Below, piece after piece: positions 764 to 8,660 of a DNA stretch of 8,835 nt. The stretch lies in the IMG/VR virus record IMGVR_UViG_2663763227_000005; one strand, 5' to 3'. Every line of letters begins with the position of its first letter. The stretch's first letter is position 1. The stretch comes from a virus. Its lineage: Duplodnaviria > Heunggongvirae > Uroviricota > Caudoviricetes. The notes below the pieces were generated by a model. The model did no database searches. It was not told the DNA's origin and saw nothing but the letters and a program-made list of their open reading frames with translations. The position numbers were made by a program, and so were the translations under genes.

Positions 764-1492
764 ATGACTTTTAAGAATGTAGCAAACATCGGATCCGTTG
801 TCACGGATAAAACCATTGATAGCCAGTACCTGTTAGAGATGGTCAATCATGCTCGTAGACAGTGCGGGGAAAAAGAAGTCCGAAATAACGACTTTATTGC
901 ACGCATTAAGGATGAACTTGAAGGTGAGCACTACGAAATTTTCGTAGTTCAAAAATCAAACAAGACAACTTCTGAAAAAGTTGTTATGTCAATTAAGCAA
1001 GCCCTTCGAGTGGCTGCTCGTGAATCTAAAGCTGTTCGCCGCTCACTTGTAGACCAACTTGAAAGTATGCAAGAAGCGCACATTAAAAGCGGTAAATCGT
1101 CGAGTGGACTTGTTGAGTATCGCCAGGCGCGAACATTGAAAATGACGGTTGAAGCTGTTACCAATCTGTTCGATTTGATGCCAAATCTTGCGCCGGAAGC
1201 AAAGCAGACTGCGGCAGCAAGCATAATCAACCCGATAGTTGGTTTTAATGCAATACCTCTTCCGGCAATAGAAGAGCATTACTACTCAGCAGGGGAGGTT
1301 GCAGAGCAGCTTGGAGTAACGGCCAACAAGATTGGTCGCATTGCTAACGCAAACAACCTCAAAACTGAGCAGTACGGGAAGTTCTTCCTGGATAAATCTG
1401 CGCATTCCAGCAAACAGGTGGAAGCATTCCGCTACAATGCGGAAGGTGTTAAAGCTCTACAACACCTGATTCATGGGAGTAATGTTGCATAA
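764..1492 (+). CDS. Phage protein of unknown function, possibly regulatory. The C-terminal segment YYSAGEVAEQLGVTANKIGRIANANNLKTEQYGKFF looks like an HTH-type DNA-binding motif seen in antirepressor C-terminal domains. An alternative GTG start at 713 is less likely.
   Basis: Long ORF with AAGGA SD (752-756) 7 nt upstream of ATG 764. The GTG at 713 falls inside the loop of a hairpin (705-725). Domain assignment is by remembered pattern only. Confidence 0.6.
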   Translation: MTFKNVANIGSVVTDKTIDSQYLLEMVNHARRQCGEKEVRNNDFIARIKDELEGEHYEIFVVQKSNKTTSEKVVMSIKQALRVAARESKAVRRSLVDQLESMQEAHIKSGKSSSGLVEYRQARTLKMTVEAVTNLFDLMPNLAPEAKQTAAASIINPIVGFNAIPLPAIEEHYYSAGEVAEQLGVTANKIGRIANANNLKTEQYGKFFLDKSAHSSKQVEAFRYNAEGVKALQHLIHGSNVA

Positions 1493-1713
1493 TGGCAAAG
1501 AAAAAATATGGCATTATGCCGCCAAGAATCAAAGGAAGAGCCAGGGTAAAAGGCGATGCTGGGAGGTATCACATTCTTGGAGTTCTGTGGCATGAGAGAG
1601 CTTTAATTTTAAGTAGACCTCATGGGTACATTGAAAAGGTATCTATAGATAGAGTAGAGATTCTTCCCCTTACACCTGAAGAAGAAGAAACGTACGGACT
1701 TTTTGATAACTAA
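1492..1713 (+). CDS. Hypothetical small basic protein (73 aa), translationally coupled to the upstream ORF.
   Basis: ATG 1492-1494 overlaps the TAA stop (1490-1492) of the previous ORF (TAATG). It ends just before an intrinsic terminator. No recognisable family. Confidence 0.45.
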   Translation: MAKKKYGIMPPRIKGRARVKGDAGRYHILGVLWHERALILSRPHGYIEKVSIDRVEILPLTPEEEETYGLFDN

Positions 1714-2554: not shown

Positions 2555-2668
2555 ATCACACCTTTGGTATTCAATTTGATAGCAAAGTGTATGCAGAAAA
2601 ATTTTGACTAGATATACTCACTTTGCTATCTTTTGTATTCGAAAAGAGTTGTTTGTGTGGAGGGTAAC
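2555..2668. promoter_or_regulatory. Divergent immI promoter/operator region between mnt and arc. Candidate Pant is -35 TTGACT (2604-2609), 17-bp spacer, -10 TATCTT (2627-2632). A perfect 12-bp inverted repeat GATAGCAAAGTG (2578-2589) / CACTTTGCTATC (2619-2630) brackets the -35 and overlaps the -10.
   Basis: Read directly from the sequence. The arrangement is analogous to P22 Pant/Pmnt with Arc and Mnt operators, though the operator sequences differ from the P22 ones I remember. Pmnt could not be placed confidently. Confidence 0.5.
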
Positions 2669-2821
2669 ATGGAGAAAGAAATAAGTAAGATTTTGGTAAG
2701 GATGCCGCAGTCGTTAAAGGATGCTATAGGTAGCAGGGCAAAGGAAGAGTGCAGGTCGTTTAACTCAGAGGTTATCAAGCGCCTGATAGACAGCTTGAAG
2801 AGAGAGGGGGTAATGGTATGA
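2669..2821 (+). CDS. arc: Arc-like ribbon-helix-helix repressor (50 aa from ATG 2669). The track ORF starts at TTG 2633, but the ATG with a GGAGGG SD is preferred.
   Basis: ILVRMPQSLKDAI...CRSFNSEVIKRLIDSLKREG matches P22 Arc ...RWPREVLDLV...GRSVNSEIYQRVMESFKKEG in pattern. GGAGGG (2658-2663) lies 5 nt upstream of ATG 2669. Confidence 0.75.
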   Translation: MEKEISKILVRMPQSLKDAIGSRAKEECRSFNSEVIKRLIDSLKREGVMV

Positions 2822-3021
2822 GTAAAGAATGTTGTTTCTGCGGCATTAGCGAATCAGACGCTGATCAAACATACATTTACTCTAAAGAAACAGGTCGGAT
2901 GCTGTGTAGTGACTGCGTGTTGGACATCATAAGATACAAGCATCTTGGATGTTCTGCCAGCATTAGCAATATAGGTGAAGTATATGAAGGGAAAGATATA
3001 ACTGATAGATCAGAAAGTTGA
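2818..3021 (+). CDS. Small CxxC...CxxC zinc-ribbon protein (67 aa) inserted between arc and ant; function unknown.
   Basis: Cys5-x2-Cys8 and Cys30-x2-Cys33 spacing. The ATG overlaps the arc stop (ATGA at 2818-2821). No equivalent gene lies between arc and ant in P22 as I recall it. Confidence 0.5.
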   Translation: MSKECCFCGISESDADQTYIYSKETGRMLCSDCVLDIIRYKHLGCSASISNIGEVYEGKDITDRSES

Positions 3022-3083
3022 AGCCCCAACTGCGGGAACAGTCAGGGCTTCGGTATCAACAAATCGTCTTAGGAAATATTGAC
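3013..3083 (-). ncRNA. sar: Candidate sar-like antisense RNA (about 70 nt), complementary to the ant ribosome-binding site and start codon.
   Basis: Leftward promoter: -35 TTGATA (plus-strand 3113-3118), 17-bp spacer, extended -10 TGcTATACT (plus-strand 3090-3098). Predicted TSS is near 3083. A compound hairpin AAGCCC-ca-ACTG-cgggaa-CAGT-ca-GGGCTT (3021-3050) is followed on the minus strand by CAACUUUCUG. The predicted length matches the roughly 68-69 nt P22 sar RNA (from memory). Confidence 0.4.
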
Positions 3084-4013
3084 ATGAAAAGTATAGCAAC
3101 AGCAGTATCTACTATCAATGTGCCATTCCACGGCGCAGAGCTTTATGTTGTCAATCACAACGGCGAACCGTACACCCCAATGAAACCTATCGTTGAGGGA
3201 ATGGGCATGACTTGGCAGTCTCAACACCGCAAGTTGATGGAGAGATTTAAGACCTGCATCATCGAAATGATGATTCAGCTCCCCGGCGATACTCAGCGTC
3301 GTCTGGTTATCTGTCTTGCTTTACGCAAACTTGCAGGTTGGCTGCAAACCATCAGCCCTAACAAAGTCCGCCCTGAAATCCGCGACAAGGTAATCCAGTA
3401 TCAGGAAGAGTGTGACGATGTACTCTACGAGTACTGGACTAAAGGCCATGTAGTTAACCCACGCAAAGCTAAAAAAGCGTTGCCGGGTAAAATCACCACT
3501 GAACAGCAGGAAGCCATTAAACAACTCGTCATGAGTCGCGGTCAGTCTCTGCCAAAAGAAAAACAGGCGAAGGCAATGATTACCATGTGGTCGTCACTGA
3601 AATCCCATTTTGGATGTTCGTACAAAGAAATCAGTGAGGAGCAGTTTACAGAAGCACTGTCACTTGCAGCTCGAGTTCCACTTGAAGGTGAGTTCATTGG
3701 CAAACAAGAGAAGAAAACCAACGAGCTTTCTGCAAAAGAAGCAAACAGCCTTGTATGGTTATGGGATTATGCCAACCGCTCACAGGCATTATTCCGCGAA
3801 CTGTATCCGGCGCTAAAACAAATTCAATCGAACTATTCCGGCAGATGTCATGACTGCGGTTATGAGTTCTCCCGTATTATCGATATGGCGAGAGATGTTT
3901 TAATCAACCATACACGAGATATTGATATTAATGAGCCAGACGGACCAACGAATCTTTCCGCATGGATGAGACTTAAGAATAAAGAATTACCTCCTTCAGT
4001 ACATAACTACTGA
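3084..4013 (+). CDS. ant: Ant antirepressor (P22 Ant-type N-terminal domain), 310 aa from ATG 3084. The track ORF starts at TTG 3018, which would run through the hairpin.
   Basis: VPFHGAELYVVNHNGEPYTPMKPIVEGMGMTWQSQHRKLMERF resembles the P22 antirepressor N-terminal domain pattern. AGGAAA (3071-3076) lies 7 nt upstream of ATG 3084. The position after arc and before the tailspike is as in P22. Confidence 0.85.
   Translation: MKSIATAVSTINVPFHGAELYVVNHNGEPYTPMKPIVEGMGMTWQSQHRKLMERFKTCIIEMMIQLPGDTQRRLVICLALRKLAGWLQTISPNKVRPEIRDKVIQYQEECDDVLYEYWTKGHVVNPRKAKKALPGKITTEQQEAIKQLVMSRGQSLPKEKQAKAMITMWSSLKSHFGCSYKEISEEQFTEALSLAARVPLEGEFIGKQEKKTNELSAKEANSLVWLWDYANRSQALFRELYPALKQIQSNYSGRCHDCGYEFSRIIDMARDVLINHTRDIDINEPDGPTNLSAWMRLKNKELPPSVHNY
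3090..3118 (-). promoter_or_regulatory. Psar-like leftward sigma70 promoter inside the 5' end of ant.
   Basis: Minus-strand TTGATA - 17 bp - TGcTATACT, a near-consensus extended -10 promoter, read directly from the sequence. Confidence 0.45.
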
Positions 4014-4113: not shown

Positions 4114-6801
4114 ATGACAGATATTACAGCCAATGTGATCGTATCGATGCCTTCGCAACTCTTCACTATGGCTCGTTCTTTTAAAGCCGTAGCCAATGGC
4201 AAAATTTATATCGGTAAAATTGACACTGACCCGGTAAATCCTGAAAACCAGATTCAGGTTTATGTGGAGAACGAAGACGGCTCTCACGTTCCTGTTTCGC
4301 AACCAATAATCATTAACGCTGCTGGATATCCGGTATATAACGGGCAGATTGCCAAATTCGTTACCGTGCAAGGTCATTCTATGGCTGTTTATGATGCATA
4401 TGGTGCGCAGCAGTTCTATTTTCCTAATGTGCTGAAGTATGACCCTGATCAGTCATTGAAATATGTAGAAGGGGCATTGCTTGTTACTGACTTAGGTAAT
4501 GGGACGTTTAAGAATAGTAGAAAAGACGTTGCCATTGGGGATAATCTAACAGGAACCAATTTTATTAGAATAAACGGCGGCGTCTATAAATGCACTCCAG
4601 TTGCAACTGGAATTGTTACTGAGATCAAACATAGATACATTATCGCAGGCGGGGTTAAAAGCTACCTGTCTCATATTTCCAGGCATGTCAGTGGTACGCG
4701 TAGGCCGCTGAACTGGAAATTAGAATTCAGCATCATAGACGATGAGATTACCGCAGATCTTAAAGATCAGTATGGTTACACGACCATGGGATTTCAGGGG
4801 ATTTACATAGACAGCAATGATGGAATGGTATACATCGGCTGGCAGACGCTAGACCCCGCATCGGTATGGGTTACGGTGCATGACTGGGTAACAGGAGCAT
4901 TGGTAACACGTCTTCATTTTCCGAATAACGTTGGTGCACCAGAAGGCATCCACGTTTACCGAGTGGCAGGACAGCGTTACATCCTGCTGCCGTACAGCCC
5001 ATCTCGCACTATCAGAATTTACCCTATCGAAGATCCGCGTACGCTGGTTGATAAAACGCAGATTACAAACTTCACTGAATCAACACGCCTTGGAGTGCGA
5101 TATCAGTTTAGTGGCTTTGGTAATACCCTGATATACGAAAATGCGGATATGGGTTGGCCGAAAATTTTTGATGTTGAGACAGGTGTATCCAATATCTTTA
5201 ACACACTGGATATTAACAGCCTTATAGAAGGATCTTACAGTCCAATGGGGACTATTACGGTTGATGCAAATGTTGGAGGTCGCGGAGCCGGTAAACCAAA
5301 ACGGCAGGGTGTCGCTCTTGGTTCTCAACGGATATTTGCTGGTATTGGTGCATCTACCACGGCGGGATCTGGAAATACTTTCGCAGGGTTGCAGGGTTAT
5401 ATTGAGTACAGCCTTAATGGTTCAGAATTAGGTCAGTACCTGCTGTCACCTGCAGATTTCAAAACATACTGGGATAGTTATTCAGGGAAGAGTGTTTACT
5501 CCACTGAAAATGAGGGGGTGCAGTCTTGTGATATTTCTGGCTCTGAGGAATTGTATCTTCTACAGTCTATTCGCTATGACAATGGGGGCGGATCAAATTA
5601 TAGGACTTTAAACATCATTCGCGCTAACTGTCCATCTAATGAACCTGGAACAGTAGACATGACTCCGCTATCCAATGCCTCCTCACAGTTATTTAACCCT
5701 CGCGGAAGGGTGATTAACGCTGGCCGTCACCCTGTGAACCCGGCTGATGGTATTGCGCTATTTACATCGGCACAGGCTATTTGTGACTATTTGCGGAATA
5801 CAGATGCAGGTAGATATGTGACATATCTTGAACAGGATATGCCACTGTTTGAAGGTGGGCCATCTGCGCCAGGACAGATGACGCTGCCAGCATTCTGCCT
5901 ATTGCAGATCGACTTCATCAACGGCGATACCTGGGAAATTACAGTTAATGGAACTAACAGGGCTAATAATTATACAGGAAGGATTTCCAAAAACGGCGGG
6001 TACAACTCTTTTACTAAGGTGTCCTCCCGCAGCATGTCGATTCTCGGATCCCCTGGTCTGGTTGATGTATCAATTCGCTCACCTAACTCACTAAATCTTC
6101 CAGAATTTGCTGGAGACTGGTCTACTGGTGTAAGTATAGGAGCTGCAGGTGGGGTGACAAACTGGCAGCCAGAAGGAACAGGTAACGGAGCATTATGGGA
6201 GTCAGGATATGCAAAAAACCGTGTGTTGCAGATATTCATGTCCACAACATCAAAACTGTTCTTCCGCTACGCAGACGATGCTATTCGCGCAGGTAACACA
6301 GGCTGGGCTGAGGCATGGTCGTCGCTGAACACGACCGTCGATTCAAGTGGTTTCATCAAAAAAGCCTCTCCGGTTGTGAAGATTTTCTCAGACGGTAGTA
6401 GTGAAACAAATCGCGAATCAGATGGGGTAACCGTCACACGGCTGGCATTGGGTGAATATCTGATTGAGGGTTGCGTAGGTCTGAATGCAGATGCTTCATG
6501 GGGGGGGATTGATGGTGGATTTGAAATACCGCAGGACCGAAACAAGCAGCCGCTCATCTGGCTGGATTATGTTGTTAACCAAGATGGATCTGTGTTGGTG
6601 AAAACGTTTCACCGCACTCATGATAACTCGCCCGTTTTTGCACGTAACGACATCCCTGGTGTTTCGAACGGTGACCCGATCGACATTCCTGCTAATCAAT
6701 TCGTTTCTGTGCGAGTACAGATGCCTGAGGATTCTGCATGGAATAAGCTTAAGGAACAACTAAATAAGGCTGAATTGATAGAAGATGATGTTGTGGAATA
6801 G
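4114..6801 (+). CDS. Tailspike protein (895 aa). The N-terminal roughly 113 aa is a P22 gp9-type head-binding domain; the remaining roughly 780 aa is a divergent receptor-binding or depolymerase module of unknown specificity.
   Basis: [71 protein letters not shown]...[13 protein letters not shown]...NVLKYDPDQ is near-identical in pattern to the P22 gp9 N-terminus ([59 protein letters not shown]...VLKYDPDQ). Similarity is lost after YDPDQ. GGAG (4102-4105) lies 8 nt upstream of the ATG. Confidence 0.9.
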
Positions 6802-7487: not shown

Positions 7488-8660
7488 TTGCTGTTGAAAC
7501 GCCGTCTTATTATTGCTGCTTCTTTGTTCGTTTTTAATTTATCGTCTGGTTTTGCGGCGGAAAACATTCCTTTTTCACCTCAACCTCCAGAGATTCATGC
7601 CGGGTCCTGGGTATTGATGGATTACACCACCGGTCAGATTCTCACCGCGGGTAATGAGCATCAACAGCGCAATCCCGCCAGCCTGACAAAGCTGATGACG
7701 GGCTATGTCGTGGATCGCGCTATCGATAGTCATCGCATTACGCCAGACGATATTGTCACCGTGGGGCGTGATGCGTGGGCGAAAGATAATCCGGTGTTTG
7801 TCGGTTCTTCACTGATGTTTTTGAAAGAGGGCGATCGCGTATCGGTACGTGATTTAAGCCGTGGTTTAATTGTGGATTCCGGAAATGACGCTTGTGTTGC
7901 ACTGGCTGACTATATTGCCGGTGGGCAACGGCAGTTTGTTGAAATGATGAACAACTATGCCGAGAAGCTGCATCTCAAGGATACGCATTTTGAAACAGTG
8001 CATGGTCTGGATGCACCTGGCCAGCATAGCTCGGCTTATGATTTAGCTGTGCTTTCTCGCGCTATCATCCACGGCGAGCCCGAGTTTTATCATATGTACA
8101 GTGAGAAAAGCCTCACCTGGAACGGTATCACCCAGCAAAACCGTAACGGGTTATTGTGGGATAAAACCATGAATGTTGACGGCCTGAAAACGGGTCATAC
8201 TTCTGGTGCCGGGTTTAATCTCATTGCTTCGGCTGTAGATGGGCAGCGTCGTCTCATTGCAGTGGTAATGGGGGCTGACAGCGCAAAAGGTCGTGAGGAA
8301 GAGGCAAGAAAATTACTGCGTTGGGGTCAACAAAACTTTACTACGGTGCAAATTTTGCACCGTGGGAAAAAGGTTGGTACGGAACGCATCTGGTATGGCG
8401 ATAAAGAAAATATCGCCCTGGGAACGGAACAAGAGTTCTGGATGGTGCTACCGAAAGCCGAAATTCCACATATCAAAGCCAAATATACCCTTGATGGTAA
8501 AGAACTCACCGCGCCAATTAGCGCCCATCAGCGGGTAGGGGAAATTGAACTTTACGACCGTGATAAACAGGTGGCGCACTGGCCGCTGGTTACCCTGGAA
8601 TCTGTCGGGGAAGGCAGCATGTTTTCCCGGCTGAGTGATTATTTCCACCATAAGGACTGA
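7488..8660 (+). CDS. dacD: D-alanyl-D-alanine carboxypeptidase DacD (PBP6b), a host gene. It has a non-ATG start: TTG at 7488, or TTG at 7494 with better SD spacing.
   Basis: The protein matches E. coli DacD essentially along its full length as I remember it (signal peptide LIIAASLFVFNLSSGFA, SxxK motif in PASLTKLMT, SGN, KTG). GAGGG (7482-7486) lies upstream. Confidence 0.9.
   Translation: MLLKRRLIIAASLFVFNLSSGFAAENIPFSPQPPEIHAGSWVLMDYTTGQILTAGNEHQQRNPASLTKLMTGYVVDRAIDSHRITPDDIVTVGRDAWAKDNPVFVGSSLMFLKEGDRVSVRDLSRGLIVDSGNDACVALADYIAGGQRQFVEMMNNYAEKLHLKDTHFETVHGLDAPGQHSSAYDLAVLSRAIIHGEPEFYHMYSEKSLTWNGITQQNRNGLLWDKTMNVDGLKTGHTSGAGFNLIASAVDGQRRLIAVVMGADSAKGREEEARKLLRWGQQNFTTVQILHRGKKVGTERIWYGDKENIALGTEQEFWMVLPKAEIPHIKAKYTLDGKELTAPISAHQRVGEIELYDRDKQVAHWPLVTLESVGEGSMFSRLSDYFHHKD

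Follow-up and report, generated by a model that had tools for sequence, protein, structure and literature searches.

The window analysed here is a stretch of 8,835 nucleotides (nt) from IMG/VR virus record IMGVR_UViG_2663763227_000005 and represents the late-operon end of a P22-like Escherichia coli prophage. Between the arc repressor gene and the antisense RNA sar of its immI region lies an open reading frame (ORF) of 67 amino acids (aa), here called ZR67. As judged from its sequence, the ZR67 product is most likely a free-standing protein distantly related to ClpX's N-terminal zinc-binding domain. The slot that it occupies behaves as a recombination-bounded cassette site within immI, flanked by the conserved arc 3' end on one side and by the terminator of sar on the other. 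ZR67 is judged to be a real gene, but a dispensable one that lies outside the core of the Mnt/Arc/sar/Ant switch. The favoured explanation, which is put forward tentatively, is that ZR67 is a dispensable accessory gene of the immI (Pant) operon and would act as an early-pulse decoy of ClpX-type recognition.

The gene between arc and sar

The ZR67 protein (MSKECCFCGISESDADQTYIYSKETGRMLCSDCVLDIIRYKHLGCSASISNIGEVYEGKDITDRSES) carries two cysteine pairs, C5xxC8 and C30xxC33, separated by 21 residues, an additional C6, and a C45 that is not conserved. Three short strands followed by a helix from the second CxxC onward are predicted for it, and its C-terminal tail is disordered in structure models. 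An earlier note, made from the DNA letters alone, had described this ORF between arc and ant with its CxxC-(21)-CxxC spacing, an ATGA overlap with arc, and an end at a sar-like hairpin, and all of this is borne out. The ATG (2818–2820) lies on the arc TGA (2819–2821), a G-rich Shine-Dalgarno-like run (GAGGGGG) is found about 8 nt 5' of the start, and the TGA (3019–3021) falls within the 3' end of the Rfam sar match (3016–3082). The target of sar fills the 63 nt that separate this stop codon from the ant ATG downstream.

The genes mnt, arc, sar, and ant have the same order and orientation as in the immI region of P22. The earlier note had described arc and ant as adjacent in that phage, and the annotated P22 record agrees: arc (14861–15022), sar (15021–15090, minus strand), and ant (from 15091) follow each other with nothing between them. 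Because arc of P22 directly abuts sar, ZR67 is to be regarded as an insertion. The window thus differs from P22 by an inserted gene of about 200 nt and by a ClpP-like gene after mnt.

The window contains 94 ORFs of at least 30 aa, and the length of ZR67 alone is within chance. It is lifted above chance by the diverged orthologues that occupy the same slot.

Orthologues and conservation

When 1.84 billion cluster representatives were searched exhaustively with phmmer, 11 matches resulted, only one of which is a true relative, a 68-aa Salmonella protein (P0013) with 37% identity. The other ten are long eukaryotic repeat proteins (TPR, Ig) that scored through the sum of weak stretches and were rejected as spurious. 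A scan of the GTDB species representatives found no relative of ZR67. A relative of P0013, the likewise Salmonella-borne P0017, is indexed in 536 blocks of the collection, and a 63-aa ORF of IMG/VR locus L156 represents a third subfamily in the same slot. Depending on the alignment, ZR67 is about 25–37% identical to P0013 and P0017. It matches PHROG 7150, a family without an assigned function, from end to end (positions 1–67 of 67, E 1.2e-49), and the same family is matched by P0013 (1.8e-9) and the L156 ORF (5.7e-8).

The earlier note had asked for conservation and synteny in related immI regions, and both were found. The loci of P0013 and P0017 belong to P22-like prophages and read gp16 ... 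ClpP-like–mnt leftward and arc–ORF–sar hairpin–ant–tailspike rightward. The 4-nt start/stop overlap with arc is kept by P0013, P0017, and the L156 ORF, and the cysteine quartet is intact in orthologues that share only 26–37% of their residues with ZR67. Over 20 sequences, C6, F7, C8, G9, S22, K23, T25, C30, C33, and I37 are invariant; the S22-K23-x-T25 motif, the cysteines, F7, and I37 are thus retained at this level of divergence. C5 is kept in all but two minor variants, and the single-residue variants within the E. coli cluster are mostly found in the C-terminal tail. The identity of the N-terminal MSKECCFCG is partly a boundary effect, because the first ~30 nt, like the hairpin, are common to the subfamilies at the DNA level.

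Probable relationship to the ClpX zinc-binding domain

ClpX's own zinc-binding domain (Pfam PF06689; PROSITE ClpX-type ZB domain; PDB 1OVX, 2DS5) is also a C4 ribbon of about 40 residues, with the pattern C-x-F-C-G ... I/L-C-x-x-C-V followed by a helix. ZR67 has the four ligands CxxC ... CxxC of such a domain. Aligned with ClpX-type domains by hhalign, the ZR67 family reached probabilities of 78%, 75%, and 60% (E 2e-5 to 9e-5); the four cysteines coincide in the alignment, which contains a 3-residue loop insertion. Furthermore, ZR67 (7e-5), the 60-aa slot protein ZF60 described below (1e-5), and the E. coli ClpX N-domain (5e-7) match PHROG 5259 in the same region of the profile; the ClpX query used was confirmed to be identical to PDB 1OVX and 8E91. 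The sole Pfam match of the ZR67 orthologues is zf-C4_ClpX, with 10–13 bits (E 0.086 to 0.75) against a gathering threshold of 27 bits, which ZR67 does not reach either. The UniRef name of P0017 is "ClpX-type ZB domain-containing protein".

The invariant F7 and I37 of ZR67 align with F16 and I46 of ClpX in the hhalign comparison. In ClpX, these residues mark a hydrophobic patch to which lambda O binds and which shares part of its surface with the docking site of SspB, RssB, and trigger factor; MuA, too, docks on the N-domain, as do lambda O and the other three (PMC7804408). Taken together, homology of ZR67 to the ClpX zinc-binding domain appears probable, if by no means certain. ZR67 differs from ClpX in that it stands alone, without the AAA+ module, and in its SKxT motif, which is absent from ClpX.

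ZF60 (WP_115194777 type; loci L003 and L082) sits in the same slot as ZR67, overlaps arc by the same ATGA, and resembles ZR67 in size. It passes the Pfam threshold for the ClpX zinc finger (E 2e-9 and 4e-11), and it shares matches to PHROG 5259 and 20296 with ZR67. The pairwise BLASTP comparison of the two proteins is not significant (E 0.13), and ZF60 represents a separate cassette lineage. In the ZF60 allele of L003 (3259–3441), the first ligand is changed from Cys to Tyr (YSFCG versus CSFCG in P0018), independently of a C5-to-Y change that occurs in ZR67. Such changes may reflect recurrent inactivation, or, in ZR67, C6 may take over.

Other similarities of ZR67 were rejected. Matches to the RING proteins RNF4 and RNF31 (phmmer and hmmsearch against PDB sequences, E 0.005 to 0.4) were taken as a generic similarity of the cysteine pattern, and UPF0167 was dismissed (E 0.26).

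The slot and its cassettes

The content of the slot was surveyed in 120 IMG/VR loci, which were collected by the sar terminator sequence only and in which the ORF ending at the hairpin was read. In about 64 of them, the slot is empty and arc ends at the hairpin as in P22. The ZR67 family is present in 15 loci, a 73-aa ORF (orf73; PHROG 11805) in ten, and a 57-aa ORF (orf57; PHROG 17642) in five, to which six deletion remnants are added. Three loci carry a second zinc ribbon of 74 aa (ZR74, CDFC...CNKC; Pfam zf-C4_ClpX E 0.0015, below the cut-off), two carry ZF60 (named "ClpX C4-type zinc finger protein" by PGAP), and two to three an 89-aa membrane protein (PHROG 27312). The hairpin lies near a contig end in seven loci, where the slot content is unreadable. 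A small ORF is therefore found in ~40% of the sampled sar-bearing immI regions, ~60% being empty, and at least six unrelated cassette types exist.

All cassette ORFs start with an ATGA or GTGA on the arc stop, and the TGA in tGAAGCCCC, where the sar hairpin has its base, serves them all as stop codon, the sar terminator hairpin being the right-hand boundary of the cassette. Nearly invariant ZR67 DNA adjoins Arc proteins of 61–100%, Mnt proteins of 35–100%, and Ant proteins of 46–100% identity, and the Ant partners include different N-terminal domains. The orf57 remnants (L067, L089, L128, L140, L160, L167) consist of an 11-codon form with an internal deletion (VIRLDAAKKSKQ), in which the GTGA start and the terminal TGA are kept.

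An obligate pairing of the zinc ribbon with the ClpP-like gene of the window was considered and rejected. The ClpP-like gene occurs in 4 of 12 ZR67 loci and in 4 of 64 empty loci, also together with orf57 and orf73; of 100 sampled immI regions, 12 carry it. Its association with ZR67 is thus facultative, not obligate. In the Salmonella prophage of locus L047, the ClpP-like gene is 97% identical to that of the window, and the mnt, arc, and zinc-ribbon genes are 35–46% identical.

Distribution, alleles, and annotation

The exact ZR67 protein is found on 264 contigs of public collections, under the name "hypothetical protein". ZR67 DNA is present in 372 of 5426 complete E. coli genomes, with 69 of the matches at 99% identity or more and 304 at 95–99%. 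The commonest form among the E. coli genomes is a frameshift allele (L005, L036–L046), which has one additional T in the T-run after codon 6 plus four substitutions, next to intact arc and ant genes. It is the allele of the O157:H7 (Sakai Sp6), O145, and O55 prophages, and the O157 frameshift represents one clonal event. In lambdoid Stx-type prophages, which carry this allele, the immI module is placed among tail genes.

ZR67 was not called by RefSeq/PGAP in any of the rows examined. In the record of phage CUS-3 (L001, CP000711.1, 6505–6986), the stretch is annotated as "bsq2 boundary sequence", with neither arc nor ZR67. A variable "ant moron" has been described, with CUS-3 apparently lacking arc (Villafane et al. 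2008; PMC2629481). A tblastn comparison of this stretch gave matches to Arc, with 66% identity over 41 aa, and, behind it, to ZR67, with 98.5%. Judging from these matches, CUS-3 does in fact carry an Arc-like ORF and ZR67, contrary to that description.

Two irregular alleles were encountered. One Logan contig encodes a 112-aa in-frame fusion of Arc and ZR67 (P0001), apparently caused by a 1-nt change in the G-run that ends arc; whether natural fusion or sequencing error, both readings are plausible. In E. coli AF10 (L004, 6524–8789), ant is split by an IS3-family insertion located 3' of an intact ZR67.

Possible function

As an accessory gene of the immI operon, ZR67 would be translated by coupling to arc and only when Pant is open, that is, during a brief pulse after infection before Arc accumulates, or upon failure of Mnt in a lysogen. 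The product would be a small domain in which about 40 residues include four cysteines as zinc ligands; the tail behind it is variable and probably disordered. Being free, the domain might serve as a decoy or competitor, which binds ligands of the ClpX N-domain or pairs with that domain itself. As a result, the rate at which ClpXP degrades some protein of the phage or the host would change transiently while the early pulse lasts. The affected protein might be, among others, an O-like replication initiator, Ant, or the antitoxin of an abortive-infection system.

A wider form of this idea holds that P22-like and Stx-type phages repeatedly recruited free ClpX docking domains (ZR67/ZR68/ZR63, ZF60, and ZR74) to the arc-coupled slot as decoys that would redirect recognition by ClpXP, the slot being active solely during the first minutes after infection or when immI is derepressed. 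In this generality, the proposal is speculative and rather unlikely. Such mini-domain decoys could shield a replication protein or antirepressor of the phage, or could block abortive-infection systems that are triggered by proteases. In some phages, they might oppose the phage-borne ClpP-like protease expressed with Mnt in the lysogenic state.

Several results weigh against the decoy explanation and the relationship to ClpX that underlies it. ZR67 itself gave no match to the ClpX zinc finger in a Pfam scan even at E ≤ 10 and no ClpX match in an NCBIfam scan, and an hmmsearch of the ZR67 family profile against PDB did not reach ClpX. The cysteine pairs are 21 residues apart in ZR67, compared with 18 in ClpX. 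In two minor ZR67 variants, P0023 and P0031 (MSKEYCFCG), C5 is replaced by Y. Among the matches listed, all of those in the 95–99% identity band of the E. coli genomes are 96.6% identical over 205 nt, which is the length of the single-T frameshift allele. The comparison of P0013 with P0017 yields a ratio of non-synonymous to synonymous substitution rates (dN/dS) of 1.19 (2.5 synonymous and 14.5 non-synonymous changes), the value for the adjacent arc genes being 0.17. The intact E. coli alleles differ at two synonymous and three non-synonymous sites and are uninformative on selection, because their DNA is 97–100% identical with only these five variable sites. Conservation at the protein level, the absence of which the earlier note had named as grounds for giving up its proposal, is present at long range. 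At short range, a dN/dS of about 1.2 between the two Salmonella alleles makes the evolution of the family look neutral, with no sign of purifying selection.

An early-pulse moron effector with a target unrelated to ClpX is another possible explanation, only slightly less favoured than the decoy. The slot would then let any small gene be expressed briefly once the DNA has entered and keep it silent in the lysogen, and the zinc ribbon would bind another host or phage factor, for example in anti-defence or host takeover. Such a function is consistent with the unrelated cassettes in the slot (orf73, orf57, the 89-aa membrane protein, and zinc ribbons) and with the independence of ZR67 from the type of arc, mnt, and ant. 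Likewise, proteins in an arms race or under relaxed constraint typically show a dN/dS near 1 and changes that fall in loop and tail. The low-confidence structure models of ZR67, which match RING, ZZ, and ClpX-domain treble clefs about equally, would also suit a generic treble-clef fold. However, ClpX-like proteins fill about half of the occupied slots, with ZF60 above the Pfam ClpX threshold, ZR74 and the ZR67 orthologues below it, and ZR67 itself without a match. The alignment of the invariant F7 and I37 with the docking patch of ClpX also speaks against an unrelated target.

The earlier note had offered two roles for the ORF: an extra regulator of the antirepressor switch or a small effector co-expressed when immI is derepressed. 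A dedicated regulator might assist or stabilise Ant or Arc, or might control ant expression. Its position within the arc–ant operon and its coupling to arc would suit ZR67 for such a role, as would the one contig with the fusion P0001 and the fact that the ZR67 stop replaces the arc stop at the foot of the sar hairpin. The cassette behaviour of the slot and the occurrence of an almost invariant ZR67 next to diverse Arc, Mnt, and Ant proteins argue against this role and for a portable accessory function expressed when Pant is open. P22 and ~60% of the sampled immI regions work without ZR67, with unrelated cassettes in others. Prophages of the O157:H7 and O145 type have it frameshifted next to intact arc and ant, and Pfam scans of ZR67 found no DNA-binding signature. 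The regulator is therefore improbable, and the small effector appears to fit better.

It is still less probable that ZR67 is a non-functional ORF, decaying or fortuitous, that is carried along with mobile immI DNA. The missing RefSeq/PGAP calls and the unannotated stretch of CUS-3 would agree with this view, as would the prevalence of the frameshift allele in E. coli genomes, the dN/dS of about 1, and the C5-to-Y variants. Nevertheless, in three diverged subfamilies of 63–68 aa the frame has stayed open and both the zinc ligands and the overlapping start are preserved, and ZR67 belongs to a PHROG family and occurs on hundreds of contigs from E. coli and Salmonella. The O157 frameshift, moreover, is a single clonal event.

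Least probable of all is a translated spacer, in which translation and not the peptide matters and ribosomes are brought to the base of the sar-terminator hairpin, as by arc in P22, to tune sar pairing or ant translation: the common start and stop positions of all cassettes and the short-range dN/dS of about 1 would agree with it, but recombination boundaries would account equally well for the shared ends, orthologues of only 26–37% identity retain the cysteines, F7, SKxT, and I37, the 11-codon orf57 remnants are tolerated, and the frameshift allele terminates early while the locus persists.

Layout of the window

The features of the window are compiled in the table. The region shows the characters of a P22-type immI, namely divergent mnt and arc genes, a sar RNA over the ribosome site of ant, and an ant gene with P22_AR domains. 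The ZR67 locus is a variant of this known architecture with a divergent, uncharacterised member of a known domain class.

Table. Positions of predicted genes, promoters, and RNA in the window.
Feature	Position	Strand	Basis
Two antirepressor-like genes	61–675, 764–1492	+	Bro-N plus P22AR_C, and PHROG 1726
Small 73-aa gene	1492–1713	+	PHROG 4977
ClpP-like serine protease gene, 178 aa	1770–2306	−	Pfam CLP_protease, E 2e-11
mnt-like ribbon-helix-helix repressor gene, 82 aa	2306–2554	− (divergent from arc)	Pfam Arc, E 1e-10
Pant-like promoter, TTGACT-17-TATCTT (predicted)	2604–2632	+	Consensus scan; position equivalent to P22 Pant
arc repressor gene, 50 aa	2669–2821	+	Pfam Arc, E 4e-12
ZR67, 67-aa C4 zinc-ribbon ORF	2818–3021	+	PHROG 7150 over full length; syntenic orthologues
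sar antisense RNA including terminator hairpin (plus strand GAAGCCCC...GGGGCTTC)	3016–3082	−	Rfam RF00262
ant antirepressor gene, 309 aa	3084–4013	+	Pfam P22_AR_N, E 1e-45, and P22_AR_C, E 2e-28; PHROG 245 (anti-repressor Ant)
Psar-like promoter, TTGATA-17-TATACT with TG extension (predicted)	3090–3118	−	Consensus scan, 10/12 matches
Tailspike gene	4114–6801		Family assignment
Penicillin-binding-protein-like gene (candidate)	7488–8660		Read from its translation

The Pant-like promoter would drive arc, the 67-aa ORF, and ant. The sar match covers model positions 1–68 of 68 with 73.4 bits against a gathering score of 43, and the Psar-like promoter has the same relative place as Psar in P22. An N-terminal extension of ant from a TTG at 3018, which would give a 331-aa form and a TTGA overlap with the ZR67 stop, was rejected as probably a coincidence, L047 having a stop codon in that frame. 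Together with the two antirepressor-like genes upstream, ant brings the number of Ant-type proteins encoded in the region to three. The mnt orthologue in L047 also matches Repressor_Mnt.

The start of the ClpP-like gene overlaps the mnt stop, which makes it the second gene of the mnt operon. Its ClpP-related NCBIfam matches are all under their cut-offs, and a BLASTP comparison with E. coli ClpP aligns the Ser and His of the catalytic triad. The protease would be co-expressed with Mnt in the lysogen, i.e. in the opposite state to ZR67. Other genes are found in related regions, such as a HicA toxin/DUF1902 pair in Salmonella versions (L169–L173, 2383–2919) and a Panacea-domain gene between gp16 and mnt in L003 and L006. 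The surrounding "ant moron" thus gathers cargo of the toxin–antitoxin type.

Comparison with other phage systems and significance

A small ORF in an antirepressor operon is reportedly also present in phage P1, where Riedel, Heinrich and Schuster are said to have described icd upstream of ant1/ant2 in the immI operon in 1993. Both icd and ZR67 belong to an operon under an antisense RNA and are translationally coupled within it. A relationship in sequence between them was neither found nor expected. They differ in that icd is said to be coupled to ant itself, whereas ZR67 is coupled to arc, with the sar target before ant. The distance of 63 nt between the ZR67 stop and the ant ATG leaves no direct coupling of the icd type to the ant start codon.

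Several phages encode small inhibitors of host AAA+ proteases. Lambda CIII acts against FtsH, lambda RexB protects lambda O from ClpXP, and T4 PinA and T7 Gp4.5 act against Lon. The logic proposed for ZR67 would be alike, in that a small early protein transiently blunts an ATP-dependent protease of the host. These inhibitors have no homology to ZR67.

Literature searches found no published work on ZR67 or on a link between ClpX fingers and antirepressor (immI) regions; the ZR67 family is catalogued (PHROG 7150) but unstudied. The main interest lies in the slot and in the recurrence of ClpX-like zinc ribbons within it. The textbook immI module of P22 has many natural versions with an extra, swappable, arc-coupled gene, which standard annotation has mostly missed. 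If the zinc ribbons are indeed decoys of the ClpX N-domain, they would be the first of a class of small phage proteins that modulate a host AAA+ protease in this way, and would provide tools to separate N-domain-dependent from tag-dependent degradation by ClpXP. If they are not, the slot would still be a defined place in which to seek early-pulse phage effectors.

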